A stretch of DNA of 64,000 bases from an uncultured Nitrososphaerota archaeon (GCA_964594835.1 CAZQNA010000005.1:99771-163770), one strand, 5' to 3'. Positions 22 to 61,302 are shown, counted from the first letter of the stretch. The notes: generated by a model not told the origin, from the sequence alone. A program made the numbers and translations.

Positions 22-900
22 TCAGCGGGAGAGCATCTCCCTGATGAAGTTGGGGAGCTGGGCGAGCCCCAGGTGAACACCCGGGTTGTAGAACCTCGTC
101 TTGCCCCGGAGACCCCTCTCCTCGTACCGGCGATCCAGGGTCTCCCTGTCGACCTCCAGCGGGGAGTCGGACCCCTCCAAGAACCCCCACATTCCGCTCT
201 GGTAGGTGGGCGCGAAGGACAGGTAGGGCCTCACGTGCTTGAACACGGACCTGAACACGCCGTGGAGCTCCCTCGTTATCTGCGGATAGAGGAAGGGGGT
301 CTCCGCCTGGGCCACGGCTATGCCGCCATCGGCCAGGACGGCCTTGACCCGCAGATAGAAGTCCCGGGTGAACAGCTTCCTGGCCTCGCCAACGGGGTCG
401 GTGCTGTCCACTATCACTACGTCGAACCTCTCGCCGGTGCTCTCCATGAACTCGTATCCATCGGCGATCACTAGCTCGTGCCTCGGGTCGGCGAAGGAGG
501 AGGCCAGCTCGGGGAAGAACCTCTTGGACACCTCCACGACCCTCTCGTCCAGCTCGGCCTGGACGACACTCCTGACGGTGGGGTGCTTGAGGACCTCTCT
601 CGCCGCCCCCCCGTCCCCACCTCCGACGATCAGGACCCTCTCCGGATGGGGGTGAGTCATCATGGCCGGATGGACGAGCATCTCGTGGTAGATGAACTCG
701 TCCCGCTCCGTGAGCTGTATCAGCCCGTCGAGGACCAGTATCCTCCCGTACTCATACGTCTCCATGACGTCTATCCTCTGGTACCTGCTCGTCTCCGACC
801 ACAGGAACGCCTTCACGCGGAACGAGAGCCTGAGATTCTCGGTGTGGTGGTCTGTGAACCACACGTTAGCCTTCTCTCTCTCAGCCGTGGGTGTGGCCAA
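22..900 (-). CDS. speE: spermidine synthase (polyamine aminopropyltransferase)
   Basis: 292 aa; SpeE motifs VLIVGGGDGGAAREVLKH, DVVIVDSTDP; TTG start. Confidence 0.9.
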   Translation of the reverse strand: MATPTAEREKANVWFTDHHTENLRLSFRVKAFLWSETSRYQRIDVMETYEYGRILVLDGLIQLTERDEFIYHEMLVHPAMMTHPHPERVLIVGGGDGGAAREVLKHPTVRSVVQAELDERVVEVSKRFFPELASSFADPRHELVIADGYEFMESTGERFDVVIVDSTDPVGEARKLFTRDFYLRVKAVLADGGIAVAQAETPFLYPQITRELHGVFRSVFKHVRPYLSFAPTYQSGMWGFLEGSDSPLEVDRETLDRRYEERGLRGKTRFYNPGVHLGLAQLPNFIREMLSR

Positions 901-7427: not shown

Positions 7428-8303
7428 TCAGCCGTACCTCGATATCCTCCCGACGAAGATCTCCTGCCTCACGGCGTCCACGAAGACGTCGACGCCCATC
7501 ACCGTCGGGAGCCTCCTCACCACATCCCTCTCCGTGACTATGCCGACGTTGGCCTCCCCCTCCCTGACCAGCAGGCTCCCGACTCCGAGCGACCTCATCA
7601 GCCTGAGCGCCTCGCTCACGTCGGTCTTTGAGTCGATCCACGCCACGGCCCTCCTCCAGGTGGGGTCAAGTGGGGTCCCGGATATCTCCTCGCCCCCTCC
7701 GCTCTGAAGGACTTCCCAGGTCTTCCAAGACCCAAGGACTGAGATCACGTCCTTCAGAGTGATGATTCCAACTATCTCGCCGGAGTCGTCGGAGAAGGGG
7801 ACTCTCCTGATGTTGAACTCGATCATCTTGGCCACGGCGTCGAAGAGCGAGTCCCTCCGGCTGGCCGCTATGAGCGGGGAGCTAGCTATCTCCCCCACCC
7901 GAACGTAAGTCGCGTGCCCTGAGAGGGCGTCCACGATGTGCCTCTCGGATACTATCCCCACGACCCTGCCCCTGGCCCCCACCACGGGAATGGCCCCGAA
8001 GTCGTGGTCCAAGAACCTCCGAACCAGCCTGGCGAATCCCTCCTGAAGTTCGACGGTCACGACTTCCCTGGTCATGACGTCCCCGGCGGTCCCCTCCCTG
8101 AGCCGGATGAGCCCCCTGTCTCCGGCCCTGACGAGGTGGCGGAGGATGTCCTTTGCCGAGACAATCCCGACGAGCTTCTCTCCGTCCTGAACCAGGGCGT
8201 GACGCACGGCCCTGTTCCGCATCCCCCTGAGCACGCCGAAGAGGGGCGCTTCGGGCTCCACGACTACCGGGGGAGGGTACCTCCCTATCAGACCTATCAG
8301 CAC
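7428..8303 (-). CDS. CBS-domain protein (four CBS repeats)
   Basis: Four CBS repeats; the ORF-track N-terminus looks like non-coding readthrough; GTG at 8303 preceded by GAGGT proposed as start. Confidence 0.7.
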   Translation of the reverse strand: MLIGLIGRYPPPVVVEPEAPLFGVLRGMRNRAVRHALVQDGEKLVGIVSAKDILRHLVRAGDRGLIRLREGTAGDVMTREVVTVELQEGFARLVRRFLDHDFGAIPVVGARGRVVGIVSERHIVDALSGHATYVRVGEIASSPLIAASRRDSLFDAVAKMIEFNIRRVPFSDDSGEIVGIITLKDVISVLGSWKTWEVLQSGGGEEISGTPLDPTWRRAVAWIDSKTDVSEALRLMRSLGVGSLLVREGEANVGIVTERDVVRRLPTVMGVDVFVDAVRQEIFVGRISRYG

Positions 8304-8397
8304 GCCCAAGCCGAGACCTCCCTGGCGGAAAAATGCGCTCGGCTGGGCCGCCAGTGGGACATTAAAAATAGCCGTGGGTGGTCGGGGGAGTAGGCAG

Positions 8398-8820
8398 ATG
8401 ATGGTCAGCGTCAGGACCACGAGCATATCGGCCGAGCGCCTCTGGGACGTTGAGGCTCCGCTCCCTGCGCCCGTTCAGATCCAGCTCAACGTCACGGTCC
8501 ACAAGCTTGAGCCCTCCGGCAAGGGGAAGGCCAAGGGGTCCTTCGTCGTCTCGGCCACGTACAACCCGGCGGTCGCCCAGATAACCATAAGGGGGATCGT
8601 ACTCGTCCAGGGCAGCGAGAAGGAGGTGAAGGAGGCCGTCGACAGGTCGGGCTCCGGCAAGCCCCCGGACGCCGTGGTCCAGGCGGTCTTCTCGTCCGCG
8701 ATGGCGGACGCCGTCGTCGCCAGCCGCTCGATAGGAGTGCCCCCGCCCCTGCCCGCGCCCATGATCTCCAGGCAGCAGAGAACGCAGCAGGGCTCGGGCT
8801 CCATGGAGTACGCGATCTGA
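8398..8820 (+). CDS. hypothetical small protein with Q-rich C-terminus
   Basis: ATG at 8398 preceded by GGGGGA and TTAAAAATA box ~30 nt upstream; protein-like composition. Confidence 0.4.
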   Translation: MMVSVRTTSISAERLWDVEAPLPAPVQIQLNVTVHKLEPSGKGKAKGSFVVSATYNPAVAQITIRGIVLVQGSEKEVKEAVDRSGSGKPPDAVVQAVFSSAMADAVVASRSIGVPPPLPAPMISRQQRTQQGSGSMEYAI

Positions 8821-8899
8821 CGGGTCATAGGCCGCCTGCCAGTCCCCTCGAGCTCGTCGGGTCGGGATTAAATCGTAGGATCTCAGGGCCCGCGAGAGG

Positions 8900-9454
8900 A
8901 TGCTCCTGAGTGATAGGTCCATAAGGGCCCTGTTGAAGTCCGGCGAGCTCGTCATAGACCCCCTGTGTTCGGACACGGTGAGAGAGAACGGGGTTGACCT
9001 CAGGATAGGTGGACAGGTCGCGTTCCCCGTTGAGAGGGGAGGGACGATCGACCTCGCGGGGGCGGAGCCGGAGGAACAGTTCGTCAGGGTCGACATCCCC
9101 AGAGAGGGCCTCCTGATTCCCGGGAACTCCAGCGTCCTACTGGTCACGGAGGAGAGGGTCAGGCTGCCGTCGAATCTGGCCGGCCTCTGCGGGCTCAGGA
9201 GCACCCTGGCGAGGTGGGGATTTCTCTCGGCTCCGACCCTCATCGACGCCGGGTTCGAGGGGCAGCTGACTATCGAGGTCTTCTGGACGAGGCCCTCTCC
9301 GGTCAGGATCTACCGCGGACTGCGGTTCCTTCACGTGGTCTTCTTCAGGCTGGACGAGAACTCCACCAGGCCCTACTCCGGCTTCTACCAGGGCCAGAGC
9401 GGGGTCAGCCTCCCGAAGAGCCTGGGTGATGAGGTTGAGGATCTCGAGGGTTGA
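8900..9454 (+). CDS. dcd: dCTP deaminase
   Basis: MLLSDRSI N-terminus, YQGQ C-terminal motif; TATA GATTAAAT ~30 nt upstream. Confidence 0.9.
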   Translation: MLLSDRSIRALLKSGELVIDPLCSDTVRENGVDLRIGGQVAFPVERGGTIDLAGAEPEEQFVRVDIPREGLLIPGNSSVLLVTEERVRLPSNLAGLCGLRSTLARWGFLSAPTLIDAGFEGQLTIEVFWTRPSPVRIYRGLRFLHVVFFRLDENSTRPYSGFYQGQSGVSLPKSLGDEVEDLEG

Positions 9455-10340
9455 GGCGGCCGGAGGTGACTGGCTCCTCTACGTGGGGGCCAGGGTGTCC
9501 AGGAGCTCCAAGCCCCTCGAGGACATGATCAGGGAGGCCACGCCGAGGAGGATGGAGAGTCTGTTCAGAAAGCTCCTCGGTTGGGGGCACCTCTCGGTCT
9601 TCGAGCACAGTCTGATCCGGGTCTGGGTGGAGGGAAGCCGCGACGAGGTCAAGTCGAGGCTCTTCCACTGGAAGTTCGTCGAGTACTCGGAGGACGAGGG
9701 GGTGCTGTCCCTGAACCCCAGGGTCGCCATAGAGATGCTCGAGCGGGGCGGGCCCGAGCTGAGGGAGCTTGCCAGAAGTGTCCTCTCCCCATTCCCCGTG
9801 CTGTCCAGGTGCCTGGGACTGGGGTCTGGCGGGGGGCCATCTGGAGGGTCCAGCCCGACGCGTCCGACGAGCGCCCAAGAGGAGGGAATCTGGGTCCACA
9901 TGCTGTCTTCCTCCCCCTGGCCCGATCCGAGGCACGGCTTCCACGCCTTCCTCGTGGAGGGGATATCCAGGGTGTGCAGCCACCAGCTGGTGAGGCACAG
10001 GGCCCTCAGCTTCACTCAGCAGAGTCAGAGGGTGTCTCAGGTGGTGGGCTACTACCTCCCGGGCCACCTGGACGAGGATCTCAAGGCCAGCATGGGGAGG
10101 GAGATAGAGAGGGCCCTCAGAATATACTATGGCCTCTTGGATGCCGGAGTCGAGATGGAGGACGCCAGGTACCTCCTCCCGCAGGCGTGCACCACCAGGA
10201 TCCTAGTCAGCGGGAGGGACTCCGCGTGGCTCCACTTCATAAGGCTGAGGGCCGCGAAGGAGGCCCAGAGGGAGATCAGGCTCGTGGCTCAGATGGTTAG
10301 GCGCCTGTCCGGTCTGGAGCCGACCTACCCCCGGGGTTGA
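9429..10340 (+). CDS. thyX: FAD-dependent thymidylate synthase ThyX (with Gly/Ser-rich insertion)
   Basis: ThyX motif HQLVRHRALSFTQQSQR; overlaps the dcd 3' end. Confidence 0.88.
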   Translation: MRLRISRVEAAGGDWLLYVGARVSRSSKPLEDMIREATPRRMESLFRKLLGWGHLSVFEHSLIRVWVEGSRDEVKSRLFHWKFVEYSEDEGVLSLNPRVAIEMLERGGPELRELARSVLSPFPVLSRCLGLGSGGGPSGGSSPTRPTSAQEEGIWVHMLSSSPWPDPRHGFHAFLVEGISRVCSHQLVRHRALSFTQQSQRVSQVVGYYLPGHLDEDLKASMGREIERALRIYYGLLDAGVEMEDARYLLPQACTTRILVSGRDSAWLHFIRLRAAKEAQREIRLVAQMVRRLSGLEPTYPRG

Positions 10341-22739: not shown

Positions 22740-22786
22740 AAAGGTTATTAAGTATGATAGTCTGTTGGTGGGAGCTGGGGGAGCCC

Positions 22787-23113
22787 ATGACCGCGAAGCC
22801 CCGTGACGTCAAGATCCTGGTCGCCTGCGGGACCGCTATTGCGACCGCCACGGTCGTGGCGGGCAAGATCAAGCAGGCCTTCGAGAAGCTGAAGATCCCG
22901 GTCACGATAGTGCAGTGCAAGGCGTCGGAGGTCCAGGGCAAGATAGAGGTCTTCGACCCGGACGTCATAGTCGCCAACACACCGATCTCTGAGAAGGCGG
23001 CCAGGGGCAAGCCCGTGATCAACGGGGTACCCTTCCTCACCGGGATAGGGGAGAAGGAGGCTCTGAAGAAGATATTCGAGGCCGTGGGGATAGCCCCTCC
23101 GGCCGACCTGTGA
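22787..23113 (+). CDS. PTS EIIB component, galactitol (GatB) type
   Basis: KILVACGTAIATATV phospho-Cys motif; collinear with GatB; own TATA GGTTATTAAGTATG upstream. Confidence 0.85.
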   Translation: MTAKPRDVKILVACGTAIATATVVAGKIKQAFEKLKIPVTIVQCKASEVQGKIEVFDPDVIVANTPISEKAARGKPVINGVPFLTGIGEKEALKKIFEAVGIAPPADL

Positions 23114-23115
23114 AA

Positions 23116-23121
23116 TTTTTT
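23116..23121 (+). terminator. T6 run after the EIIB stop (archaeal-type terminator signal)
   Basis: tgaaattttttacg immediately after the stop codon. Confidence 0.4.
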
Positions 23122-23286
23122 ACGAAATTAGAGCGACCCTTGAGGCCAGCCCGCTTCTTTTCGGCTTCAGAGCGGACAGTTGGCTCAGGAGGCTCCTTTT
23201 CTCTGGAGTAACAATCGCTAACTTTATTAGTAAGAGTCGAAGTCGTGGTAGTCAGCCGTCGAGCGCAGACGGCTGGTGAGTGGAAG

Positions 23287-24555
23287 ATGGACATCGTTGG
23301 AGCAGTCCAGTGGTTTCTGGGGCTGGGTGCCACGGTAGCCATACCAATAATCCTGTTCATAGTGGGCTTGGCCTTCAAGATACCCGCAAGTAAGGCGTTC
23401 AGGGCGGCGCTGACGATCGCCTGCGGCTTCGTGGGCATAAACCTGGTGATAGGCCTGCTGTGGGGGACCATGAGCGACGTGGCCCAGGCGATGGTGCAGA
23501 GGACCGGGATCGAGCTGACCGTCATCGACGTGGGCTGGCCGGCCGCGGCCGCTATCGCCTGGGGCACGATCGTGGGCGCCCTCACGATCCCGATAGACTT
23601 CATCATCAACATCATCATGCTGGCCCTTGGCCTCACGAAGACCATGGACATCGACTTCTGGAACTACTGGCACTTCGCGTTCACAGGGTCCCTGGTCACT
23701 ATGGCAACCGATAGCGTTCCCCTCGGGCTGATCGCATCCGCAATCAACGCGATAATAGTGTTCAAGCTCGGAGACTGGACGGCAGAGGGAGTGCAGGAGA
23801 TGCTCGGGATCCCGGGCATATCGCTGCCACACGGCTTCTCCGCTGCGTACGTCCCCATAGGCATCCCGATCAAGAAGGCGATCGACGCCATACCACCCCT
23901 GCGGGATGTCAGGGCTGATCCAGAGGCCATCCGGGAGAGGCTGGGCGTCCTGGGGGAGCCGATGGTCATAGGCTTCATAATAGGCATCCTCCTGGCCATC
24001 GCGGCCGGGCAGGACATCGCGGGCATCCTGAACACGGGCGTGACCCTGGCCGGCGTCATGTACCTCATGCCAAAGGTTGTAGCCATACTGATGGAGGGGC
24101 TGGTCCCGATATCGGAGGCTGGCAAGAAGATCCTGGAGGAGAAGTACGGCGGGAGAGAGATGTACATCGGTCTGGACTCTGCGATCGCCATCGGTCACCC
24201 GACCGCCATAGCCGCGGCCCTGATACTGGTCCCGATAACGATAGGCCTCGCGTTCGTGCTGCCGGGCAACAAGTTCCTGCCCCTCGCCGACCTGGCCGTC
24301 CTGCCCTTCATGGTCTGCATGCTCGTGCCGATCGTGAAGGGCAACGTGGTCCACACGGTCATCATAGGGGCGATCGTGCTCATCCCGGCCATGTACATAG
24401 GCACCTTCCTGGCGCCGTACGTCACGCAGGCCGCCATAACCGCGGGCTTCGAGGCCCCTGAGGGGGCTACCCTGATCTCCAGCATCTGCGATGGTACCAA
24501 CCCGCTGACCTTCGTCCTCTTCCTGCCGTTCTACCTCCTGTTCGGGAAGAAGTGA
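23287..24555 (+). CDS. PTS EIIC component, galactitol/ascorbate family (GatC-like permease)
   Basis: Collinear with E. coli GatC: VIDVGWP, KLGDW, LPHG, GEPMVIGF, VMYLMPKV; ~10 TM. Confidence 0.9.
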   Translation: MDIVGAVQWFLGLGATVAIPIILFIVGLAFKIPASKAFRAALTIACGFVGINLVIGLLWGTMSDVAQAMVQRTGIELTVIDVGWPAAAAIAWGTIVGALTIPIDFIINIIMLALGLTKTMDIDFWNYWHFAFTGSLVTMATDSVPLGLIASAINAIIVFKLGDWTAEGVQEMLGIPGISLPHGFSAAYVPIGIPIKKAIDAIPPLRDVRADPEAIRERLGVLGEPMVIGFIIGILLAIAAGQDIAGILNTGVTLAGVMYLMPKVVAILMEGLVPISEAGKKILEEKYGGREMYIGLDSAIAIGHPTAIAAALILVPITIGLAFVLPGNKFLPLADLAVLPFMVCMLVPIVKGNVVHTVIIGAIVLIPAMYIGTFLAPYVTQAAITAGFEAPEGATLISSICDGTNPLTFVLFLPFYLLFGKK

Positions 24556-52907: not shown

Positions 52908-54020
52908 ATGAGCGGGAGGAGTCGGGCGGCCGTCGTGCTGGCGGCCCTGGCCGCGGTTCCCCTCTGGGCGGCGGCCTCCAGCCCCTCGTACTCCCTCGGC
53001 GTCACGGTCTCACCCAGCGAGGTGGAGGTAGGGGGCTCCATCACCACCTCGGTGAGCATCACGGTCGACGGGCTGGAGTCGGGCACGGTGTACGCCACCA
53101 TGTGGACCAGGGACCCCGGAGGGCGGGAGAGGTACTACGATCAGTCCCCCCAGTGGACCCACGCCGACGTCCCTGTGAGCTACAGGAACTCGTGGACGCT
53201 CAGGGCAGACAGGCCCGGCACGTGGACTTCCTGCGTCAGGCTCGTGTTCGACGGGGACGCCCCCGACGGGAGCGGGTATCAGACGATAACGAGGTGCGCC
53301 TCCACCGAGGTTTCTGACGGAGACGCGGGCGGCAGCGGGAGCGACTCCGACCAGGGCGGTGGCGGCGGCAGCGGGGCCAGCGGAAGGACTGCCACGAGGC
53401 TGACCGCGGCGGCGAGCCCCAACCCGGTCGAGCCGGGTGAGCAGTTCACAGTGACGGGAGGCCTGTTCGAGGCCGACCAGGCCGACTGGTGGAATCACCC
53501 CATAGGCGGGGCCAGCGTGAGGGTCTCCTTCGGGGGCAGGACCGAGGTGGCGACGACCTCCGCGGACGGCGGGTGGGGAGTCTCGTTCACCGCACCCTCG
53601 GAGGAGGGAACCTACACCGTGACCGTGAGCTTCTCGGGCGACTCCTCTCACTCTCCCAGCTCGGAGAGGGTCACGGTCAGGGTCAGGAGATCCCCCTCCA
53701 GGAGGTCGTGCTCCCTGGAGCTGAGGTTTCCGGCCAGGGTCCACGTCGGGGACACCATCGAGTTGACCGTCGTGTTGAGGGACTCAGCCACGGGCCAAGA
53801 GATCAGGGGCAGGCCTGTTACCCTCTACCTGGACGCAAACGACGTTCGAGTCGAGTCGGGGTCCACCTTCACGCTCCAGGCCGTGAGGGCGGGGACCATA
53901 GACGTTGGAGCGAGGTTCGCGGGAGACGACTTGTACGAGGAGGCCTACGCGCCCGGCGGCCTGATAGAGGTTTGGACCAGGCCTGAGATCACGATAGTCA
54001 GGGTCGGGGCGGGAGGCTGA
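52908..54020 (+). CDS. secreted cell-surface protein (Ig-like/CARDB-like repeats)
   Basis: Signal peptide; Gly/Ser/Asp linker; C-terminal EVWTRPEITIVRVGAGG. Confidence 0.62.
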   Translation: MSGRSRAAVVLAALAAVPLWAAASSPSYSLGVTVSPSEVEVGGSITTSVSITVDGLESGTVYATMWTRDPGGRERYYDQSPQWTHADVPVSYRNSWTLRADRPGTWTSCVRLVFDGDAPDGSGYQTITRCASTEVSDGDAGGSGSDSDQGGGGGSGASGRTATRLTAAASPNPVEPGEQFTVTGGLFEADQADWWNHPIGGASVRVSFGGRTEVATTSADGGWGVSFTAPSEEGTYTVTVSFSGDSSHSPSSERVTVRVRRSPSRRSCSLELRFPARVHVGDTIELTVVLRDSATGQEIRGRPVTLYLDANDVRVESGSTFTLQAVRAGTIDVGARFAGDDLYEEAYAPGGLIEVWTRPEITIVRVGAGG

Positions 54021-54025
54021 TTCGC

Positions 54026-54688
54026 TTGTCTTCTCGTCTGAGGGGAGTCGTGGCCGCCTCCCTGATAGCGCTGTCCTTCGTGGCTGTCCAGGCCCTGGCC
54101 CAGTCCAGGGTCTACCGCGGCGAGGTGCTCTCGGTCGTCGGGGTCGTCAGGGACGAGCTGGGAAACCCTGTGGCCGGAGCGACGGTCCAGCTTCTGAACG
54201 GCGGGGACGTACTGGCTTCGACGAGTACGGGGCCCGACGGGAGCTTCACCCTCTCGTGGAGGGTCCCCTCCGACTTCCCGCTCGGACCCAAGACGCTGAC
54301 CGTGGCGGTCCCGGAGCAGCCCGACCTGTACGTCGAGTCGTCTTCAACCTCGGTGTCTGTAGAGGTGTGGGCGCTGGTGACGATCGAGGCGGAGGGCCCG
54401 GGGAGGGTTCACAGAGGAGAGAGCGTGAGGGTCCAGGGGAGGGTAGAGGGCGTGACCTCTGGGACTGTCGAACTCAGGAGGGGATCCAGCGTTCTGGCGA
54501 CCGGGTCAGTGAGCGGCGGTCGCTTCTCGCTCTCCTTCACGGTTCCGAGCGGGTGGGAGAGGGGACCCATAAGCCTGACCGTTACACCCGCGGGAGGGGG
54601 AGACTACACGGAGGTGAGGGGGACGTCCCTCAGGATGGAGCTCTGGGTCCGTCCGACGATCGAGATAGTCTCCGTCGAGGGCGGCTGA
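54026..54688 (+). CDS. secreted protein with carboxypeptidase-regulatory-like domain
   Basis: Signal peptide; GVVRDELGNPVAGATVQLLNG...GPDGSFTL; C-terminal ELWVRPTIEIVSVEGG. Confidence 0.62.
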   Translation: MSSRLRGVVAASLIALSFVAVQALAQSRVYRGEVLSVVGVVRDELGNPVAGATVQLLNGGDVLASTSTGPDGSFTLSWRVPSDFPLGPKTLTVAVPEQPDLYVESSSTSVSVEVWALVTIEAEGPGRVHRGESVRVQGRVEGVTSGTVELRRGSSVLATGSVSGGRFSLSFTVPSGWERGPISLTVTPAGGGDYTEVRGTSLRMELWVRPTIEIVSVEGG

Positions 54689-54689
54689 G

Positions 54690-55898
54690 ATGACGCGAAG
54701 CAGGGCGGCCCTGGCCGCGGCCCTCTCAGTCTTTGCCCTCGCACCCTCTCTGGCGGCCGCGGCCCCCCAGGTGGTTCGGGGTCAGGTGGTGAGGATCACG
54801 GTCAGGGTGACCGACGAGCTGGGCTCTCCCCTCAGCGGAGTCCGGGTGCACCTCCTCGACGAGACTGAGGGGGCGCACCTGGGGTCCGACGACACGGACC
54901 CGAGCGGCCTCGCGACGCTGCCATGGGACACGTCCGGCGCCAGGCCCGGCAGCCACGAGCTCGTCTTGCGGGTCGAGGAGGGGGATTACGTGGAGTCTGC
55001 CGTCGCGAGCCTCATGGTCGAGGTGCTCAAACCGGCGAGGCTCGCGCTCAGCGTGTCAGGACCGGCGGCCGTGCGCCCCGGCGAAAGAATCCAGCTCAGG
55101 GTCACGGTGTCCAACTCGGGGCAGGCCACGGTGCGAGACGCGGTCGTGAGGGTCGGACGCGAGGCCAGGTCTCTGGGAGACCTATCCGCGGGAGAATTCT
55201 CCGAGGCGGCCTTCTCCCTGACCGCCCCGGGGGAGCCTGGCGTCTACGAACTCTCGGTCGAGGCCTCCGGTCGAGAGTGGGGGACCGGGCGGATGATCTC
55301 CGAGACCTCCACATTCAGCTTCCGGGTGAGGACGGAGGGCGTGGGACTCGAGATCAGGGCCCCCCTCTCGGTCACGGTCGGGAGGCCGTTCACGTTCTCG
55401 CTCTCCGTCAGCAACGTGGGGGAGGATCCGGTCAACCTGTCCATCAGGGTTCACCTGAGCGGGGCCGCGCCCGCGCAGATAGAGGACTCGGTACTCCTGG
55501 GGTCGGGAGAGACCGAGGCGCTCGGCTACAGGGCCGCGGCCACCAGGGTCGGGGAAGTCCGTATCTTGGCCGTGGCGGAGGGAGGGGGGCTCAGGGCGGT
55601 TGACGAGGCGACCATACTCGCGATCCGAGAGCAGCACCCTCGCCCGTCAGCCACTCCACCCCCGAACCTCACACCGACGGTCCCCTCAAGCGAGGAGCCC
55701 CGTGAGGGTCCAGTCCCCAGCTGGGGGAACTCGACGCCGCGTCCATCGGTCGGACTCAGGGTGAACCTCTCCCTCGGGGACGACGCCGCCTGCGCCTCGC
55801 CCGCGGCCAGGGCAGGTCCCGCCTCGGCGGCCGGCTCCGGCATAGTGATGGCCGTCCTTGCGGTGATACGCGGGCTGTGGAGGGTGGAGGAGAGGTGA
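54690..55898 (+). CDS. cell-surface protein with carboxypeptidase-regulatory-like and CARDB-like domains, C-terminal TM anchor
   Basis: Signal peptide; VRVTDELGSPLSGVRVHLLD; S/P-rich stalk; C-terminal TM GIVMAVLAVIRGLW. Confidence 0.62.
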   Translation: MTRSRAALAAALSVFALAPSLAAAAPQVVRGQVVRITVRVTDELGSPLSGVRVHLLDETEGAHLGSDDTDPSGLATLPWDTSGARPGSHELVLRVEEGDYVESAVASLMVEVLKPARLALSVSGPAAVRPGERIQLRVTVSNSGQATVRDAVVRVGREARSLGDLSAGEFSEAAFSLTAPGEPGVYELSVEASGREWGTGRMISETSTFSFRVRTEGVGLEIRAPLSVTVGRPFTFSLSVSNVGEDPVNLSIRVHLSGAAPAQIEDSVLLGSGETEALGYRAAATRVGEVRILAVAEGGGLRAVDEATILAIREQHPRPSATPPPNLTPTVPSSEEPREGPVPSWGNSTPRPSVGLRVNLSLGDDAACASPAARAGPASAAGSGIVMAVLAVIRGLWRVEER

Positions 55899-55906
55899 GG
55901 CCGGTC

Positions 55907-57301
55907 CTAGCCGACGGACACGGCGGCCCCCTCCACCTCGACGGCCGCGCCGAGGAGGTCCCTGATAAGGACCTCCTCAATGCCCTCGACGGCCGCCTCG
56001 TCGTACAGCACCAGGTATCCGCCGTCCCCCCTGGGCGCGACATCCCTCACCACGTAGTGGACCAGGCCGGAGTGGGCCAGGAAGTTCCTCACGTGCTCCC
56101 TAGTGTATCTCGCCGAGAGAGCTTCCTCTAGGAGCCTGGCCGCCCTTGAGTCGTGCCGGGCCGCCATAAGCCGCTCTAGCCAGGCTCCGAGTTCTTCCCT
56201 CAATCTCTCCGGGTCCCGCTCGGACCTGAGGAAGTCCAACGTCCCTCCGGCCAGGAACCACAGCCTGAAGAGAGGGGCTCCCGCCGGGAGTTCGCCGACC
56301 CTGCACTCGGCGGCCCTCCTCTCCAGTAGGAAGCTGGAGAGCGTGGACCCGGAGCTTGAACCGCTGCCCGGATCCTCCACGGTGCCCGAGACCTCTGAGA
56401 GGAGCAGGTGATACTGGAGGGCCATCCCACTCCGCCTGTAGGCGCGGAGCAGGCCGGCTATGAGCTCAGAGGGGAGCTCCCCGGGCCTCGTCCAGGGACC
56501 CACCCCGAGCGCCTCGGCCGCCCTCAGGGCGAACTCCCTCAGGAGAATCGGGACGGCGTCGATAGCCGAGGTGTGAGAGGCGGATCTCGCGACCTCCTCG
56601 CCGACTCGGCTGAGCAGCCTGCTTAGATGAAGGTGAACGACGATCGGGGTCCCCAACGACACTCCAAGAGATAGCAGGGCCGCTTCCCTGACGAGCTCGG
56701 CGACTGAGCACGGCTCGAGTGATCTAGAAGTCTCGAAGAGTTCCACCCAGAGGGACTCCCTGTGCGGCTCCACGACAACCCTTGAGAGGGACTCGGCGAC
56801 TCGGGCGACCTCCAGCACCCTCTCGGGAGGGAGGTCGGCGACCCCGGACCTGTTCGAAAGTCTTCGGCCCCTCCTGGCCACCAAGGTCAACCTTCTACCT
56901 GAAGCCAGCGAGTGGGCCAAGGCCCCCAGCAGGGCGGACGACGTCAGGGAATCAAGCTCCCCCCAGGGGAGCAGGAATATTACGGTATCGGCCTCCACGG
57001 AAGATAGAATCGATACGCAGGCGGAGAAGGCCGCCTCCCCCGAGCCGCAGGGATGATTCCCCAGGGAAGACCCATCGAGGTTGGCGAAGACCAGCCTGAT
57101 CGGTAGGTTCGATCCCCCGAGGCCCCCAGCGCGGATCCGCGTGGGGATCTCCCCGGGGGCCAGCAGGATCAGGTTGGCGGACTTGCCCCCGCGGACTAGC
57201 TCTCTCACCCCAGAGAGAGCCCACTCCACCGCCTCATTGAGAGACTCGGCGTCCACCGGCGCTCCAGAGGCGCACATGGGAAGAAGAATCGCAAGCGGCA
57301 A
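55907..57301 (-). CDS. hypothetical protein (464 aa)
   Basis: Protein-like composition; translationally coupled to the upstream gene (TGA at 57303-05, TTG at 57301). Confidence 0.5.
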   Translation of the reverse strand: MPLAILLPMCASGAPVDAESLNEAVEWALSGVRELVRGGKSANLILLAPGEIPTRIRAGGLGGSNLPIRLVFANLDGSSLGNHPCGSGEAAFSACVSILSSVEADTVIFLLPWGELDSLTSSALLGALAHSLASGRRLTLVARRGRRLSNRSGVADLPPERVLEVARVAESLSRVVVEPHRESLWVELFETSRSLEPCSVAELVREAALLSLGVSLGTPIVVHLHLSRLLSRVGEEVARSASHTSAIDAVPILLREFALRAAEALGVGPWTRPGELPSELIAGLLRAYRRSGMALQYHLLLSEVSGTVEDPGSGSSSGSTLSSFLLERRAAECRVGELPAGAPLFRLWFLAGGTLDFLRSERDPERLREELGAWLERLMAARHDSRAARLLEEALSARYTREHVRNFLAHSGLVHYVVRDVAPRGDGGYLVLYDEAAVEGIEEVLIRDLLGAAVEVEGAAVSVG

Positions 57302-57302
57302 G

Positions 57303-58046
57303 TCAGGTCTCCTCCCACCTAACTATCGGCTCGCCGCTGCAGTCGGCCCCCTCGAGGGCCGAGATGCCCCTCAGAACCGATCTTCCGACATGTGTGGCCC
57401 TCACCCTACCGGTCGGCTCGATGTCAAGTAGACCGGCCCTCACTAGGGTGGCCGCCAGGTCCCGGTCTCCTAGAGATCCACCCCCCTTCAGCAGGTCTGC
57501 AATTTTGCTCGAGAGTGAAGCAGGTACCGGGAGAACGGGAATGCGATGAATCTGGAAGTCAGACCTGCTTGGCCAGAAAATCTCCTCTAAGACCTCCCTG
57601 CTCAGCTCTCCGTACCCTAAGAGAAGATCCCTCCACCTCTCTATCCTCCTCTCGGAGACCTTCATTGAGACGGAGTAGACGCCCTCTAGTGGACCTAGCT
57701 GAGCCGCCAAAGACAGCACGGCGGCAAGCTCCGGTGAGGAGCACGACACTAGGGCCGTAACTGAGTCTGGCCTCACTTCACTAAGGGAGAGGCAGAGTGG
57801 TTCCAGCCACTCATCGACGGAGCCTTCTAGGCTAACCCTTTCGACTCTAACCCACCTGTACTTGAGTTTGAAGGCCTCTTTGAGCCTAGATACGGTCAAG
57901 TCTGAGTTGTTTACGGAGGCAAGCATGACCATCTCTGGTTGAAAGCTGGTACCGCTGAGGTAAGTGTACAACCTCGTGATAAGCCATGGTTCGTCGCACG
58001 CCGGCGCTAATATCACGCTGATGGCTCGCCTAGCCCTGAAGGGCAT
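57303..58046 (-). CDS. hypothetical protein, Rossmann-like N-terminus + possible C-terminal HTH (regulator/sensor-like)
   Basis: 247 aa; lower GC (~52%); first gene downstream of the AT-rich 58047..58425 region. Confidence 0.5.
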   Translation of the reverse strand: MPFRARRAISVILAPACDEPWLITRLYTYLSGTSFQPEMVMLASVNNSDLTVSRLKEAFKLKYRWVRVERVSLEGSVDEWLEPLCLSLSEVRPDSVTALVSCSSPELAAVLSLAAQLGPLEGVYSVSMKVSERRIERWRDLLLGYGELSREVLEEIFWPSRSDFQIHRIPVLPVPASLSSKIADLLKGGGSLGDRDLAATLVRAGLLDIEPTGRVRATHVGRSVLRGISALEGADCSGEPIVRWEET

Positions 58047-58118
58047 CTAAGGGGTCTGTCAAATGGGAGTCTTAATGCTGATGGGGCAAAATTTCCAAAT
58101 GAGGGCAAAAAAAGTAAA

Positions 58119-58135
58119 TTTCGTCTGTGACGAAA
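58119..58135. promoter_or_regulatory. 17-bp perfect palindrome TTTCGTC-tgt-GACGAAA (operator-like) in the AT-rich divergent intergenic region
   Basis: seen directly in sequence; ~75-90 nt upstream of the 58046 start. Confidence 0.5.
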
Positions 58136-58425
58136 GTATCCTAGCTCTTCTACCCCCGCCCCACCCAGCGAGGGTGTTCCGGGCCGGAGCTCGCATACTT
58201 ATTACCGAAACCCTTCGAGGATAACTATCCGGGGGCATCCGGTGGCACAGGGATGGGACCTCCAGGACCCTCCATATCGCTCACCAATTCATCGGACATC
58301 TGGTGAAGGAGAAGAAGGTCATTGGATACCTCAGGCGACCTTCAAAACCGTAAGTAGAAGCCTACGTAGCTTTGGACAATCAGAGCTCACTTGTCCTCTC
58401 CTGAAATTTCGGGTGAATTTGTCAG

Positions 58426-59964
58426 ATGGTTTCTCTGGCTGATACAGACTGGCTTCATAGGGAATTTAGATCTACCGTCGAGGTAGCTTCCTTCGAGCTG
58501 GGACTGTCACCTATTAGGCCTATCCCCGAAATTATAGAATTAGAGGATTTTCCGGTTGGTAAGGGGTACAGGGCCGGCGCCCTGAACCGAGGTAGGTCTT
58601 TGATTCTTAGTTCGCGACTTGATGAGAAAAAATTGTCGGTTGTTCTGAAAAGAGAGGCATTTAATCTATTTATTCCAGGAAATCTAGATGATCTAGGTCT
58701 GATTTATGACCTCTCCTGGGCCTACTCCGGTGCCGAGGTGAGTTGGTGGAGAGAGTGTACGGAAGTGGTCTGGGACCCCAGATTCCCACTCTACAATGCT
58801 CCAGAAACACTCTCCCCACTACCTAGGAGGGCCCTCCTTAATGTGCTCAGACGAATACTTCAACTGGTTAGGAATCTCAACAATGTTGGTAGACACCTCT
58901 CACGTGAAGAATATCTCTCCATATTTAGCGAGATGGTGGGACTCTTAGAACCCATTAAGTTGTCAAAGGTTCAGAGAAAGGTCATCCAAGAACTTGCAAG
59001 GAGCCCGTATCTGAATCAAAAGGAGTTGGCTAGAAGGATTGGGTTCACCAGGTCGGCTGTCTCAAAATCTCTGTCTAAACTCGCATCGCTAGGCATCCTT
59101 AGCGGACCAGAAAATGTCATACTCGAAAGAATAGGCCTGGCAGGCCTCCTGGCCGTGATACCCGATCTTCCTGGTATGGAAAGAGCGTTTGCCAGATTTC
59201 CCTTCACTTACAGGATACTGAGGCCGATCTCACGCGGCCTCCCTTCATTTGTCATGTTAATCTTCCCCAGCGAGGGCCTCACCCACCTCAGGAGGGCGCT
59301 AGATGGAGAGAAGGTACGACTTGCAAGGATGGTCAGACTGACATTCTCCTACAAGGGCGCGCCCTTCAATCCAGATGCGGATGTGGGGAGGGCAGTAAAG
59401 CTTCTGAGCGAAGGAGTTGAGTTCAAGATTCGAGGAAAAAGAGAGCCAGAGATTCCAAAACTTAGCAGGTACGACCTGATGATCGTGAATCAGGTCCTGC
59501 GAAGGGGCAGGGTCAGCGTATCGACCGTCAGGGCGATGGGAATTCCCTCGGCCGAGTCACGACTCCGGAGGCTTAGAGAGCTGGGGATAATAAGGAGACT
59601 CTATGCGATCGGAGGATTCAGACTGGGGAGGCCCATCTCTGCCCTGATAAAGTCCGAACAGAGGGACTTTCCCAAGATCTCAGCTGCCTTGGGGGCGATA
59701 TCCACCTCACTCTCTTACTACGTCGAGGGGGATATCAATGGGACTTGGGGCATTCTTCTGACCTCTGAGAGGGATGTCCTAAAGGTGATGCAGTCGCTCA
59801 AGATAGTTTTTGGATCAGAGCTGGCCGGCGCAATCCCCCTGCTCGACTTTTCTCCCTCGTACTGGAGCATCCCCGTGGAACTCTGGGACGAGGGGCGCAA
59901 TCGCTTCAGGTATGAGCAGGCGCTCGAGCAGCTCCTTTCCTCACTCTCACCTAGCGACTCTTGA
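58426..59964 (+). CDS. tandem Lrp/AsnC-type regulator (two HTH+RAM units fused) with ~180-aa N-terminal extra domain
   Basis: Two HTH_AsnC-like segments (KVQRKVIQELARSPYLNQKELARRIGFTRSAVSKSLSKLASLGIL; RYDLMIVNQVLRRGRVSVSTVRAMGIPSAESRLRRLRELGII), each followed by a RAM-like block; ~45% GC. Confidence 0.6.
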   Translation: MVSLADTDWLHREFRSTVEVASFELGLSPIRPIPEIIELEDFPVGKGYRAGALNRGRSLILSSRLDEKKLSVVLKREAFNLFIPGNLDDLGLIYDLSWAYSGAEVSWWRECTEVVWDPRFPLYNAPETLSPLPRRALLNVLRRILQLVRNLNNVGRHLSREEYLSIFSEMVGLLEPIKLSKVQRKVIQELARSPYLNQKELARRIGFTRSAVSKSLSKLASLGILSGPENVILERIGLAGLLAVIPDLPGMERAFARFPFTYRILRPISRGLPSFVMLIFPSEGLTHLRRALDGEKVRLARMVRLTFSYKGAPFNPDADVGRAVKLLSEGVEFKIRGKREPEIPKLSRYDLMIVNQVLRRGRVSVSTVRAMGIPSAESRLRRLRELGIIRRLYAIGGFRLGRPISALIKSEQRDFPKISAALGAISTSLSYYVEGDINGTWGILLTSERDVLKVMQSLKIVFGSELAGAIPLLDFSPSYWSIPVELWDEGRNRFRYEQALEQLLSSLSPSDS

Positions 59965-61302
59965 GACGCTCGCCGACCACCCGGCGACCAGCGCCCTGAT
60001 CAGATCCACCGAGGTGTTGACCTCGTAGACCAGGACCTGCCTGCGTCCAGCCCCCTTCCTCCCCACGTTCCTCTGGAGAAGCCATCCCGGGGGGCACTCC
60101 CCCCCAAGCAGGGAGTAGAGCTTGCCCTGCGATATGGAGGGTATGAGCCTGGCGAGCTCCGTGGCGGCGAGCCCCCTGTGGTCCTCCCTGGACCCCACGC
60201 TCCTCTTAACCCACCTCAGATCTTCTTCCGGGATCCTCCAGGGGAGCAGGAGACCCAGGACCTCTATTCCTCGCTCCGGATCCAACCCCATCGAGTCCAC
60301 GGCGTGCTTCAGCGCCAGGACGTCTATCACCGAGAAGCAGTCGTCTCCGACCAGCTTGATCGGTTCCTCTATGCCGAGGGGGAGGCCAAGCCTGTAGGCG
60401 AGGCTCTTGGCCCTGATCAGGGCCCTCATCTGCTCGGAGGTGAGGAGCGCCCCCAGCCTCTTCAGGAGAGATCTGTAGTGGTCGTCTATCCTCAGGGCCT
60501 CGGCCACCCTGGAGTAGGAGGCCATCAGGGGCCTCTCCCTGATCAGGAGACCCGACCTCCACAGGTCGGGGGAGAGGTGGACCAGGGCCCTGAGGAGCCC
60601 GTCTCCCCTCATCGTGGCGGCAGGGTTCGTGAAGGCTACCTCCTGGGCCAGGGCCACGTCTATCGCGACCTCGATGTATGCCCTCATCCTCCTCCTGGCC
60701 CCGCGCCTCCTCCCGCCGAGCTGAAACGTCAGGCCGGTTGGCGTGAGGAAGTAGAAGTCCCCTGGCCTGATCCCCCAGTCCCTCCTCGAGCGGGACTCCG
60801 CGAACCTCCTGCTGATCTCCCCCCGCACGAGGGGAGAGGACAGGCCGTAGAGAGTCTCGGCCGGCAGGTCCTCTACAGAGTCCCCCTCTATCACCTGAAC
60901 GAGGGAGTAGGGTCGCGAGAGCATCCCCCTCCCCCTGAGGGCGCCGTCCAGGGCGGGCTCGACCGCCCTCGCGACCTCCCTCCAGAGCCTCACCACGTCG
61001 GCCGCCTCGGCCCTGGGCCGGACGAGCAGCCGAACCCTGGCGGAGGTGAAGCCTATGGAGTACCGCCTGACCTCGAGGACGGGTGGGCAGTAGGGCCTCA
61101 ATCCGCTCACTTGCTCGACGGCCCGCAGGCGACTCTTCCCAGACCTGTACCCCAGGCACACGTCCTCCCTGGCCACTCTGGAGATCCTCTCAGATATCCG
61201 GCGGAGGAATCGCGGGCCCTCGCATCCCGCCTCCTCCGACCAGTCCACCGCGACCCTGGTCAGCGAGAGGAGCGCCCTCTGAATCAAGCGGAGGCCCCCC
61301 AA
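59947..61302 (-). CDS. hypothetical Arg-rich protein (451 aa)
   Basis: Protein-like composition versus the Pro/Gly-rich antisense ORF 60178..61533. Confidence 0.5.
   Translation of the reverse strand: MGGLRLIQRALLSLTRVAVDWSEEAGCEGPRFLRRISERISRVAREDVCLGYRSGKSRLRAVEQVSGLRPYCPPVLEVRRYSIGFTSARVRLLVRPRAEAADVVRLWREVARAVEPALDGALRGRGMLSRPYSLVQVIEGDSVEDLPAETLYGLSSPLVRGEISRRFAESRSRRDWGIRPGDFYFLTPTGLTFQLGGRRRGARRRMRAYIEVAIDVALAQEVAFTNPAATMRGDGLLRALVHLSPDLWRSGLLIRERPLMASYSRVAEALRIDDHYRSLLKRLGALLTSEQMRALIRAKSLAYRLGLPLGIEEPIKLVGDDCFSVIDVLALKHAVDSMGLDPERGIEVLGLLLPWRIPEEDLRWVKRSVGSREDHRGLAATELARLIPSISQGKLYSLLGGECPPGWLLQRNVGRKGAGRRQVLVYEVNTSVDLIRALVAGWSASVSRVAR

Follow-up and report, generated by a model that had tools for sequence, protein, structure and literature searches.

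A conserved low-GC locus of uncultured Thermoproteota encoding a tandem Lrp/AsnC-type protein, a partner protein and a proline-rich micro-gene: a putative autoregulatory module

Does an abrupt loss of GC in an archaeal chromosome betray recently acquired DNA, or can it be a lasting property of the genes that it covers? The question arises for one segment of a 64,000-nucleotide stretch of DNA from an uncultured Nitrososphaerota archaeon (the window, below), in which an earlier note had seen a drop in GC at 57303-59964 and had suggested that an island with a regulatory or defence-related cassette had been acquired horizontally. The drop is real. In sliding windows of 400 to 500 bp, GC values of 0.64-0.72 give way to 0.45-0.55 over roughly 57600-59800; the minimum is 0.466, for a mean of 0.648 (standard deviation 0.037), and no other dip in the 64 kb is comparable. 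It is also visible at the codon level, with a GC3 of 0.56 and 0.67 in the genes for the 512-aa and 247-aa proteins, compared to 0.72-0.93 in the other genes picked (n = 69, window). A GC of 0.51 and a GC3 of 0.56 thus stand next to 0.66 and 0.85 in the neighbours, the atypical composition expected of a genomic island.

The four open reading frames announced for the region were found at their positions, as was the intergenic region of 379 bp (58047-58425; GC 0.51). On the minus strand, the gene for a 464-aa protein (A464, 55907-57301) forms an operon with that for a 247-aa protein (B247, 57303-58046), the two being separated by 1 nt. The gene for the 512-aa regulator (C512, 58426-59964, plus strand) lies across the intergenic region, and converges with that for its 451-aa partner (D451, 59947-61302, minus strand), which it overlaps by 18 bp. 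The A464-B247-C512-D451 order is conserved, between Big-domain genes and 2-oxoacid:ferredoxin oxidoreductase genes, in at least six related lineages known from Thermoproteota metagenome-assembled genomes (MAGs), and the low-GC segment occupies the same syntenic position in every related locus recovered (L002 to L010 and L025; at least six lineages). The patchy presence of a genomic island is thus not observed. The low GC3 of the C512 gene is common to all its orthologs, and in distant paralogous loci the dip recurs, always at about 10 points below hosts of 53 to 66% GC. Since the related lineages share both the synteny and the dip, we argue against a recent island, and conclude that low GC is a long-standing trait of the C512 gene lineage and no mark of recent transfer. 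Homologs in a core-genome context with normal GC had been named beforehand as the observation that would speak against acquisition; the context was found in all relatives, but the normal GC was not, the dip being kept there too.

The C512 family counts 87 representatives at E < 1e-3 and 26 at E < 1e-30, most of them full-length. All members that could be placed come from Thermoproteota or 'Crenarchaeota' MAGs, with two to three paralogs per genome. The comparative data consist entirely of MAGs; one of them, GCA_027491555.1, carries two syntenic copies of the locus, which suggests a mixed bin.

What kind of protein is C512? The earlier note proposed a covalent tandem of two Lrp/AsnC-type units, and the analysis supports it. 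An N-terminal zincin-like domain (residues 1-172) is followed by a first unit made of a wHTH and a beta-alpha-beta-beta-alpha-beta RAM domain (residues ~175-330), a second unit (residues ~345-475) and a conserved C-terminal motif, SxWxIPxELWDE. Residues 180-225 match Pfam HTH_24 (E = 4e-10), two members of the family match an HTH_AsnC-type domain (E = 7e-6), and residues 345-418 of unit 2 match LrpC (2cfx, E = 4.6e-4). A profile of 28 sequences, compared with the PDB, retrieves Lrp/AsnC proteins at the top (E ~5e-7), and its alignment to PH0061 spans residues 6-126 of 151. Aligned to each other with hhalign, the two units behave as internal repeats (probability 96.3%, E = 1.6e-9). The AF2 model obtained from the 28-sequence alignment (pLDDT 92.8, pTM 0.89; five close homologs alone gave a useless model, pLDDT 48) has three helices and a wing in both units, as in the Lrp-type wHTH, and the RAM topology at 238-308 and 402-472. 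With this model, Foldseek returned NirDL as best match (E = 6e-8), then about 40 Lrp/FFRP structures, aligned over their full length (136 to 152 columns, for targets of ~150 residues). Lrp/AsnC proteins form homodimers or higher oligomers through contacts between their RAM domains; in C512 a single chain contains both units, as in the fused NirDL, its best match, and from sequence and model we infer that they form an intramolecular pseudo-dimer.

The N-terminal domain of ~180 aa had been called novel. A domain of about 172 aa is indeed present, but its fold is recognisable as zincin-like, a mixed beta-sheet being followed by the active-site helix and the second ligand-bearing helix. A PDB search with the sequence of the domain was negative. 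The HExxH motif and third ligand of active zincins are missing, and every member reads [RK]-E-A-[FLV]-x instead, in the alignment of 28 sequences as in that of 14; in both, no histidine stands at either motif position, and no histidine or cysteine is invariant anywhere in the domain. Conservation bears on other residues, namely E77 (nearly invariant in the 28-sequence alignment, invariant in the 14-sequence alignment of the N-terminal domain), D95 (invariant in both), W98, W108 and Y123. Devoid of HExxH, the domain is probably catalytically inactive.

D451 is a constant partner: of the 17 non-redundant loci with a readable flank, 15 have homologs of C512 and D451 side by side, even at 23 to 35% identity, and in three different orientations. 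In one locus (L012), DUF505 takes its position. D451 has a conserved basic patch, a RED..GL motif and possibly a C-terminal wHTH. It matches nothing in Pfam, NCBIfam, PADLOC or PHROG; only a weak PadR-like match (E = 0.58) was seen, a PDB sequence search was negative, and an exact-sequence look-up returned no record. A relationship of D451 to C512, DUF505 or A464 was tried with hhalign and rejected.

The two genes on the other side bring in the question of defence. A Rossmann/CARF-like N-terminus had been proposed for B247, and PADLOC places the protein in the CARF5 family (PDLC01906 CARF5--CARF, E = 1e-12). Its homologs in L011 and L026 match the same profile at E = 2e-17 and 4e-19, the latter over positions 3-243 of 246, and both also match Csx1 CARF profiles (E = 8e-7). 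The place of the usual glycine-rich CARF ligand loop is taken, as read from the alignment, by S-C-S-(S/T)-P-E-L. The helical, HTH-like C-terminal ~70 aa give B247 an architecture that resembles Csa3, and to that extent the likeness to Csa3 that had been perceived holds; membership of CARF3/Csa3 does not, as the best family is CARF5, no HTH model matches the C-terminus, and the window has neither cas genes nor arrays. A PDB search with the B247 sequence was negative. In A464, a Csx1-type HEPN domain probably forms the C-terminus: up to eight Csx1/Csm6/CARF-HEPN profiles match residues 368-447, with marginal scores (best E = 5.8e-4), PDLC01035 does so in all 5 orthologs, and R405-N-F-L-A-H410 is invariant. 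Matches to Pfam Csx1_HEPN (E = 0.21) and TIGR01897 (E = 0.22) are weak, PDB searches with A464 and with its HEPN region were negative, and no profile covers residues 1-360; an hhalign comparison with the B247 CARF family gave no sign that the N-terminus shares that domain. CARF and HEPN-like genes would fit a defence role, although there is no cas gene in the window, and the core formed by the micro-ORF described below, the C512 gene and the D451 gene is also found without CARF genes.

This micro-ORF had escaped the first reading. It lies in the intergenic region, on the minus strand and divergent from C512 (58275 to 58225), and comprises 16 codons, for the peptide MEGPGGPIPVPPDAPG, and a stop. 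A Shine-Dalgarno-like GGTGA (58281-58285, minus strand) precedes its ATG by 5 nt, and each of the five aligned orthologs has GGTG(A/G) in this position. Start, stop and length are identical in all close orthologs, eight codon columns vary only synonymously, and residues other than proline are also under purifying selection. In about ten lineages a micro-ORF for 15 to 24 residues is divergent from the C512 gene; even for distant C512 homologs, homologous peptides such as MMENGPVVPAPLPSVPES and MDMMIGPIHPPAPPVK are encoded on the opposite strand, with the ATG 77-167 bp upstream of the C512 homolog. The background for comparable ORFs is 0.11 per kb. Most of these homologous micro-ORFs have GGAGG or GGTGA before the ATG, L011 being without. 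PP or PxP runs occur in every version (PPD, PPN, PPAPP, PPPLPP). The gene next to the micro-ORF is B247 in the clade of the window and in the L011 and L026 clades. A plus-strand reading of the conserved intergenic block (PGASGGTG...) shows the same synonymous pattern, but was discarded, having no conserved start and being interrupted by stops in L002. Likewise, a 14-nt perfect complementarity between the start region of the micro-ORF and the D451 mRNA (58267-58280 and 60129-60142) is restricted to the window and probably due to chance.

The same intergenic region had been credited with a palindromic operator. The 17-bp palindrome TTTCGTCtgtGACGAAA is present at 58119-58135, but we could not retain its role as operator, for it is neither significant nor conserved: the window holds 11 perfect 7+3+7 palindromes where 6.9 are expected, at least one palindrome with 7-bp arms appears in the shuffled intergenic region with a chance of about 0.12, and no orthologous intergenic region has the right arm. 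Together with an A7 run (T7 on the minus strand), it makes up a hairpin-plus-U-tract, terminator-like element on the minus strand, downstream of the micro-ORF (58103-58135), of which the T-tracts are conserved and the hairpin is not. The repeated boxes GGGCAAAA were correctly noticed, at 58084 and 58103 and nowhere else in the window; they are these T-tracts read from the other strand. No known RNA was found in the region with Rfam, at gathering threshold or at E <= 1.

Comparison of orthologs points to other elements. Upstream of B247, the sequence CATTAAGA (58070-58077, minus strand; -31 to -24 from the ATG) belongs to a block, G(T/A)CTTAA(T/C), conserved in the clade of the window, L011 and L026, and from its position it would act as a TATA box; such a distance implies a leaderless mRNA. 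Just upstream of it, the box CAAAATTTCCAAA (58087-58099) hardly changes between lineages in which C512 itself is down to 38 to 40% identity, and is a candidate operator or activator site. A second conserved box, GAAATTTCG (58403-58416, plus strand; AAATTTC box at 58403-58411), may serve as an autoregulatory operator. It is followed by a Shine-Dalgarno-like GGTGA, 9 nt ahead of the C512 ATG, and the clade of the window, L011 and L026 all have GAA(A)TTTC plus GGGAGG or GGGTGA. The pattern RAAATTTCS has just two occurrences in the window, and both fall in this intergenic region, a count tested post hoc. Judged by conservation, it is the AAATTTC boxes that are the conserved cis elements, not the palindrome, but they could simply be TATA-like promoter elements. 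A further conserved block, GAAGAAGGTCATTGG (58311-58325), lies between the micro-ORF and C512 and may be part of a promoter or operator.

Taken together, we favour, with a probability of about 0.55, a conserved, vertically inherited chromosomal module of a small clade of uncultured hydrothermal(-vent) Thermoproteota, with C512, D451 and the translated micro-gene as its core, and with autoregulation through the AAATTTC boxes; most likely, it is a putative ligand- or peptide-responsive autoregulatory module. C512 would be its DNA-binding component, two Lrp/AsnC-type units fused as a pseudo-dimer behind an inactive zincin-fold domain, D451 its constant partner, and the divergently transcribed micro-gene the source of a proline-rich peptide of 15 to 24 residues. 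In the window and its nearest relatives, the micro-gene is followed by the operon for the CARF5 sensor B247 and the Csx1-like HEPN protein A464. C512 is proposed to bind the AT-centred AAATTTC boxes of the 379-bp control region. One of them overlaps the 5' leader of its own gene, which suggests autorepression. From the position of the other, immediately ahead of the B247 TATA box, C512 might control the B247-A464 operon and perhaps also the micro-gene. Among archaeal Lrp-family factors, Pyrococcus LrpA is known to autoregulate by way of a site that overlaps the transcription start, and Methanocaldococcus Ptr2 to activate from a site upstream of BRE/TATA, and the positions of the boxes match how these factors work from such sites. 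A ligand held in the RAM pockets or in the groove of the dead zincin domain would modulate binding, D451 and the peptide being candidate co-factors. Several points weigh against this proposal: the best structural match of C512, NirDL, is an enzyme and not a transcription factor; the boxes, with their post hoc count, may be promoter elements; no domain could be assigned to D451; why the AT shift of the C512 gene persists is left unexplained; and the data are drawn from MAGs only, GCA_027491555.1 being possibly a mixed bin.

A more specific scenario makes the proline-rich micro-peptide the ligand of the dead zincin domain, and C512 a transcription factor that senses, inside the cell, a peptide encoded by the adjacent gene. 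C512 is the one constant neighbour of the micro-ORF, always divergent and at the short distance given above, whereas the gene downstream of the micro-ORF differs among loci and is absent in L012; the peptide varies clade by clade together with C512; and a zincin fold is a peptide-binding scaffold, here with its zinc-binding histidines gone and its groove residues E77, D95, W98 and Y123 conserved. However, paralogs L017, L018, L029 and L030 keep the N-terminal motifs and have no detectable micro-ORF, and a peptide devoid of export signal leaves the logic of the sensed signal unclear, so that we hold this scenario to be rather unlikely. Its extension to a complete intracellular switch, in which the peptide of 15 to 24 residues, once bound to the dead zincin domain of the tandem-Lrp factor, and possibly with D451, sets the expression of the module (including here the CARF sensor and the HEPN RNase), is a little more doubtful still; the AT shift would then be part of the regulator gene's own control.

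Alternatively, the micro-ORF may work through its translation rather than its product. Ribosomes would stall on its PP-rich codons when proline-tRNA or hypusinated aIF5A is limiting, and so set read-through of the T-tract into B247-A464 (elsewhere into a D451-like gene), in the manner of attenuation. PP or PxP runs in all versions, oligo-T tracts after the micro-ORF in all loci, a co-directional gene next in most of them, and the hairpin with T7 in the window are all in keeping with this, and the proline-codon leader ORFs of bacteria, such as mgtP and mgtL in Salmonella, provide a precedent. Against it, the spacing between stop codon and T-tract is not constant (about 5-15 nt at the lower end, about 110 nt at the upper), in L012 no gene follows the micro-ORF in its own direction, B247 appears to own a conserved TATA box at leaderless-mRNA distance, and purifying selection also acts on residues other than proline. 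We therefore consider a leader-peptide sensor improbable.

There is still less to recommend a recently acquired island, in which a defence or regulatory cassette would owe its low GC to the transfer of the genes for the 247-aa and 512-aa proteins and the region between them. The strong compositional anomaly, the presence of CARF and HEPN-like genes, typical of CRISPR-associated signalling, and the multi-copy nature of the C512 family speak for it. But the proteins of the four syntenic genes are 48 to 80% identical among the at least six lineages, all of which have the dip, and its recurrence by about 10 points in distant paralogous loci is not predicted by a single unameliorated transfer. Hallmarks of mobility are also lacking: no tRNA was found, and only short flanking repeats at chance level, none convincingly att-like; no integrase and no viral, plasmid or phage relative was found in IMG/VR, BFVD, PLSDB and phage sets. 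No cas gene occurs among the other 68 proteins of the window, nor cas10, type III genes or a CRISPR array in the 64 kb, and the distant loci are flanked by housekeeping genes. We regard the island as very unlikely.

Lastly, C512 shares the tandem or heterodimeric Lrp-like fold of NirDL and AhbAB, but that it should be an enzyme or tetrapyrrole-binding protein of this siroheme decarboxylase type, and no DNA-binding regulator, is hardly credible. Identity is 11 to 14%, and any tandem Lrp fold would produce the structural match. Sequence profiles speak for the wHTHs of bona fide DNA-binding Lrp/FFRP and MarR proteins. Genes for heme or d1 biosynthesis are not adjacent, and no locus type shows a tetrapyrrole gene within the few kb that flank it on either side. 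Moreover, a zincin-like domain, a D451 partner, a micro-ORF and two to three paralogs per genome ill suit a housekeeping decarboxylase.

Among archaeal transcription factors, the Lrp/AsnC family is the main one, and its members are nearly always single wHTH+RAM chains that sense amino acids. The module favoured here is built differently, with a covalent pseudo-dimer, a dead protease-fold domain, an obligatory partner protein and a tightly linked micro-gene, and literature searches brought up no relevant work on this architecture or on the micro-ORF. Should the peptide or the partner turn out to be the signal, this would be a new mode of input for the family, and the micro-protein would be among the few in archaea with an assignable role. 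More generally, a strong local dip in GC need not betray recent transfer, but can be an old, lineage-stable trait of one gene, and conserved genes of 16 codons can escape automated annotation in 'intergenic' regions where it places no gene.

How does the locus compare with known systems? Lrp/AsnC (FFRP) proteins such as PH1519/FL11, PH0061, P. furiosus LrpA and B. subtilis LrpC assemble as homodimers or octamers where C512 would be a pseudo-dimer; C512 adds to them the 172-aa zincin-like domain and the conserved C-terminal WDE motif, at an identity of 11 to 22%. NirDL, whose enzymatic role is in the synthesis of heme d1 and in alternative heme synthesis, and AhbA-AhbB (PDB 4ch7, 4czc, 4czd) are 11 to 14% identical to C512, and NirDL is without the N-terminal zincin domain. 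The R-N-x-x-x-H motif of A464 aligns, with marginal scores, to the C-terminal end of the CARF and HEPN proteins Csx1 and Csm6, though no cas10, type III gene or CRISPR array lies in the 64 kb. Csa3 combines CARF and wHTH, and B247 likewise joins a CARF domain, at its N-terminus, to a helical, HTH-like C-terminal part, but its best family is CARF5, 'CARF only', and not CARF3/Csa3. ImmA/IrrE (PprI) proteins, like C512, associate a zincin-fold domain, an HTH and a small-molecule-type sensor domain. This likeness is architectural only (PprI 8slm is a faint Foldseek match, E = 0.08, probability 0.12): ImmA/IrrE keep HExxH and cleave a repressor, whereas the C512 family has the motif in no member, carries Lrp-type units and has no sequence similarity to them. 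As for the micro-gene, the receptor-peptide pairs of the RRNPP quorum-sensing type have a TPR receptor, of which there is none here, and neither a signal sequence nor a processing site is present in the peptide; compared to these pairs and to mgtP and mgtL, the micro-ORF is divergent from the regulator gene rather than in its operon, and its host is archaeal. It nevertheless resembles the stalling-type leaders mgtP and mgtL in its richness in proline, and the RRNPP pairs in being a very short conserved ORF tied to the gene of a transcription factor.

The low-GC segment is best supported as a vertically inherited regulatory module. Only four close homologs of the 512-aa regulator (C512, 58426-59964, plus strand) were found in the word-indexed database (61 to 70% identity), and all four, as well as other loci recovered in GTDB genomes and in JGI metagenomes, have the same gene order: a thioredoxin-like protein, a radical SAM protein, a PrsW protease and three Big-domain secreted proteins, then A464 (464 aa, 55907-57301, minus strand), B247 (247 aa, 57303-58046, minus strand), C512 and its 451-aa partner D451 (59947-61302, minus strand), followed by the beta and alpha subunits of a 2-oxoacid:ferredoxin oxidoreductase (OFOR). 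The host MAGs, assigned to Thermoproteota or 'Crenarchaeota', come from hydrothermal sites, and identity to the window proteins is 55-57% for A464, 48-49% for B247, 61-69% for C512 and 76-80% for D451; judged from sequence, the relatives sharing this synteny are well-diverged lineages. The three Big/CARDB-like repeat genes, consecutive in the window (52908-55898, plus strand) and encoding hydrophobic, signal-peptide-like N-termini, are conserved ahead of the module in every close relative. In the MAG assembly GCA_027491555.1 the entire syntenic region, thioredoxin-like gene through OFOR, is present twice in diverged form (L002 on contig JAOZGN010000006, L004 on JAOZGN010000013), most likely reflecting a mixed-strain or mixed-species bin and not a duplication. 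In L004, the 459-aa gene call (P0005, 9771-11380) begins too late, as an artefact of annotation: the complete N-terminus, MSELVDSDRLEE..., is open in frame upstream.

An exhaustive profile search gave 87 C512-family representatives at E<1e-3 (26 of them at E<1e-30), most of which are full length (480 to 550 aa). With a profile built from 28 sequences, Lrp/AsnC proteins came top among PDB sequences (E ~5e-7), the alignments spanning the HTH into the RAM domain, and hhalign pairs residues 172-335 with 338-500 as internal repeats (probability 96.3%, E 1.6e-9, 118 columns), in support of the tandem Lrp-type units claimed in the earlier note. The AF2 model of C512 has a pLDDT of 92.8 and a pTM of 0.89. 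We read the N-terminal domain as a predicted catalytically dead zincin domain. The HExxH motif is absent from the family, its helix reading [RK]-E-A-[FLV]-x, and E77 is invariant across a separate 14-sequence alignment of the N-domain and nearly so across the 28 sequences; D95 is invariant, and W98, W108 and Y123 are conserved. Neither a conserved His or Cys in the N-domain alignments nor a sequence-level match of this domain to any peptidase was found. At the other end of the protein, SxWxIPxELWDE is among the segments most conserved in the 28-sequence alignment.

The 379-bp region between B247 and C512 (58047-58425) contains a short gene of its own. Alignment of the orthologous regions revealed some 60 nt of conserved GC-rich sequence whose substitutions are three-periodic and which, read on the minus strand, gives a proline-rich micro-ORF, MEGPGGPIPVPPDAPG* (58275 to 58225, minus strand), divergent from C512. 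Its start, stop and length are identical in all close orthologs, eight of its codon columns show synonymous variation only, and GGTG(A/G) stands 5 nt upstream of its ATG: the micro-ORF is coding, and it is annotated in none of the sources. Related peptides (MMENGPVVPAPLPSVPES, MMRGGPVVPAPLPSVPGS, MGPIMPPNPPVQPPE, MDMMIGPIHPPAPPVK, MVRKMIGPIAPPAPPVI, MGIVVKKMPPPLPPRPPVIPDPPE) are encoded on the strand opposite distant C512 homologs, with the ATG 77 to 167 bp upstream of those homologs; GGAGG or GGTGA precedes most of them (L011 is an exception), and oligo-T tracts follow all of them. Micro-ORFs of 15 to 24 codons lie divergent from every type-1 and type-2 C512 homolog (in the window at 58225-58275, minus strand, and in L002-L016, L022-L023 and L025-L028), and none was found upstream of L017, L018, L029 and L030. 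The frequency of proline-rich ORFs of this size in these loci, counting both strands, is 0.11 per kb, which corresponds to a chance expectation of about 0.01 per 200-bp single-strand window. What follows the micro-ORF varies from locus to locus, being B247 in the window, a D-like gene elsewhere and no gene in L012; the constant partner of the micro-ORF is therefore C512. Through a perfect 14-nt inverted repeat (58267-58280 and 60129-60142), the D451 mRNA could pair with the start region of the micro-ORF (-5 to +9), but this repeat is conserved in no ortholog and is probably due to chance.

Six elements of this control region are common to the window clade and to the L011 and L026 clades, where C512 identity is 38-40%. 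These are TCTTAATG (58070-58077, minus strand, -31 to -24 from the B247 ATG), which by its position is a candidate archaeal TATA box for a leaderless B247 mRNA; CAAAATTTCCAAA (58087-58099); an A-run (58107-58113, T7 on the minus strand); the micro-ORF itself; GAAGAAGGTCATTGG (58311-58325); and GAAATTTCG (58403-58411), followed by the SD-like sequence GGTGA, which lies 9 nt from the C512 ATG. RAAATTTCS, a pattern picked post hoc, occurs twice in the 64 kb, both times in this region, for 0.14 expected. The palindrome proposed earlier as an operator, TTTCGTCtgtGACGAAA (58119-58135), is indeed present; however, such a palindrome arises in the shuffled region with a chance of about 0.12, 7+3+7 palindromes number 11 in the window for 6.9 expected, and the right arm is not conserved in the orthologous alignment. 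Likewise, the two GGGCAAAA boxes exist (58084 and 58103), but are minus-strand T-tracts read on the other strand. In the window only, the palindrome and the T7 together resemble an intrinsic terminator located downstream of the micro-ORF. In the type-2 C512 homologs L013, L015 and L023, a perfect 12-bp palindrome, CACTAATTAGTG, overlaps the GTG start codon and is a further AT-centred candidate autoregulatory site.

D451 is linked to C512 well beyond the syntenic relatives: by tblastn and clustering, of the 17 non-redundant loci with a readable flank, 15 have a D451 homolog beside the C512 homolog, and this adjacency holds down to 23-35% identity. The pair may be convergent, the arrangement found in the window, or divergent, with the D451 homolog in a shorter form (314 to 336 aa), or co-directional, with C512 duplicates sometimes in tandem; several genomes have two to three pairs each. 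D451 had no match in Pfam, NCBIfam, PADLOC, PHROGs or the PDB, its C-terminus giving a weak PadR-like wHTH hit (E 0.58). L012 is the one locus without a D451 homolog; a DUF505 plus HVO_A0261_N wHTH protein (7706-9505, minus strand, E 7e-104) is convergent there instead, and hhalign shows no relation between it and D451.

The CARF-like character ascribed earlier to B247 holds, since the protein matches the PADLOC profile CARF5--CARF (E 1e-12), as do its homologs of L011 (E 2e-17) and L026 (E 4e-19, spanning the whole 246-position profile), both of which also match Csx1 CARF profiles (E 8e-7). The CARF5 clade includes Cad1 deaminases (PMC12669630, PMC12825302). In B247 the last ~70 residues resemble a wHTH, a prediction that no model confirms. 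A464 shares an operon with B247 (1-nt gap) and ends in an invariant HVRNFLAHSG, at which up to eight Csx1/Csm6/CARF-HEPN profiles align weakly (best E 5.8e-4); its first 360 residues match no profile. B247 joins the core module in the window, L011 and L026 clades, and A464 is seen only at loci whose contigs reach far enough. PADLOC detected no cas genes among the 68 other window proteins. Two window proteins, including 22-900 (minus strand), match mad2 of the MADS system (best E 8.6e-22) and one further protein matches PDC-S10 (E 5.9e-9); these matches are unrelated to the regulator module.

The question arises as to how the low GC came about. The dip described in the earlier note is confirmed, and the window has no other like it: in 500-bp windows, GC averages 0.648 (sd 0.037) and is below 0.55 only at 57501-59750, with a minimum of 0.466. 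A codon-level anomaly underlies it, GC3 being 0.56 for C512 and 0.67 for B247, against 0.72 to 0.93 in all 69 other pickable genes. The next-lowest stretch (22751-23500, GC 0.57), the sole other region below 0.58, surrounds the junction of genes 22754-23113 and 23245-24555. C512 orthologs and their upstream regions are low in GC in all syntenic relatives (GC3 0.53 to 0.69, versus a neighbour average of 0.77 to 0.85). Because orthologs in diverged syntenic lineages keep the low GC, the recent, horizontally acquired island that the dip had suggested is not supported: gene order and dip are conserved in all relatives recovered, and we found neither a tRNA nor a convincing repeat at the flanks, nor any relative among viruses, plasmids or phages.

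Family-wide, GC3 is 0.09 to 0.29 below that of the neighbours in 15 of 22 members, the gene itself lying about 7 to 15 GC points under them, and the hosts of these 15 genes span 53% to 66% GC. Such an offset tracking host GC is not predicted by a single unameliorated transfer. The shift is small or absent in L017-L020, L026, L029 and L030, paralogs without a micro-ORF among them, which suggests that it tracks micro-ORF presence. L026 and L011 are sisters whose micro-peptides are almost the same, yet the shift is confined to L011; selection alone would not predict this loss in L026. Neither account explains the persistent AT shift.

Within a vertically inherited module, the DNA-binding component would be C512, in which a tandem-Lrp pseudo-dimer is joined to an accessory dead-zincin domain, and it would act on the AAATTTC boxes conserved in the shared control region. 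What the analysis shows is the architecture of the protein, the linkage of the genes and that the micro-ORF is coding; DNA binding by C512, like its targets and ligand, we infer. D451, the micro-peptide or both may serve as its co-factors, and the CARF/HEPN pair B247/A464 would be a likely target or associate in this lineage. As rivals to this reading we weighed a recent island, a receptor system for the peptide, a leader peptide that senses proline and an enzyme resembling NirDL. The module's potential importance hinges on the peptide-sensing reading. In the families, structures and literature searched, we found no description of a dead zincin and two Lrp units in one chain, of an obligatory D451 partner or of a linked proline-rich micro-gene; the component folds of the module are themselves already known.
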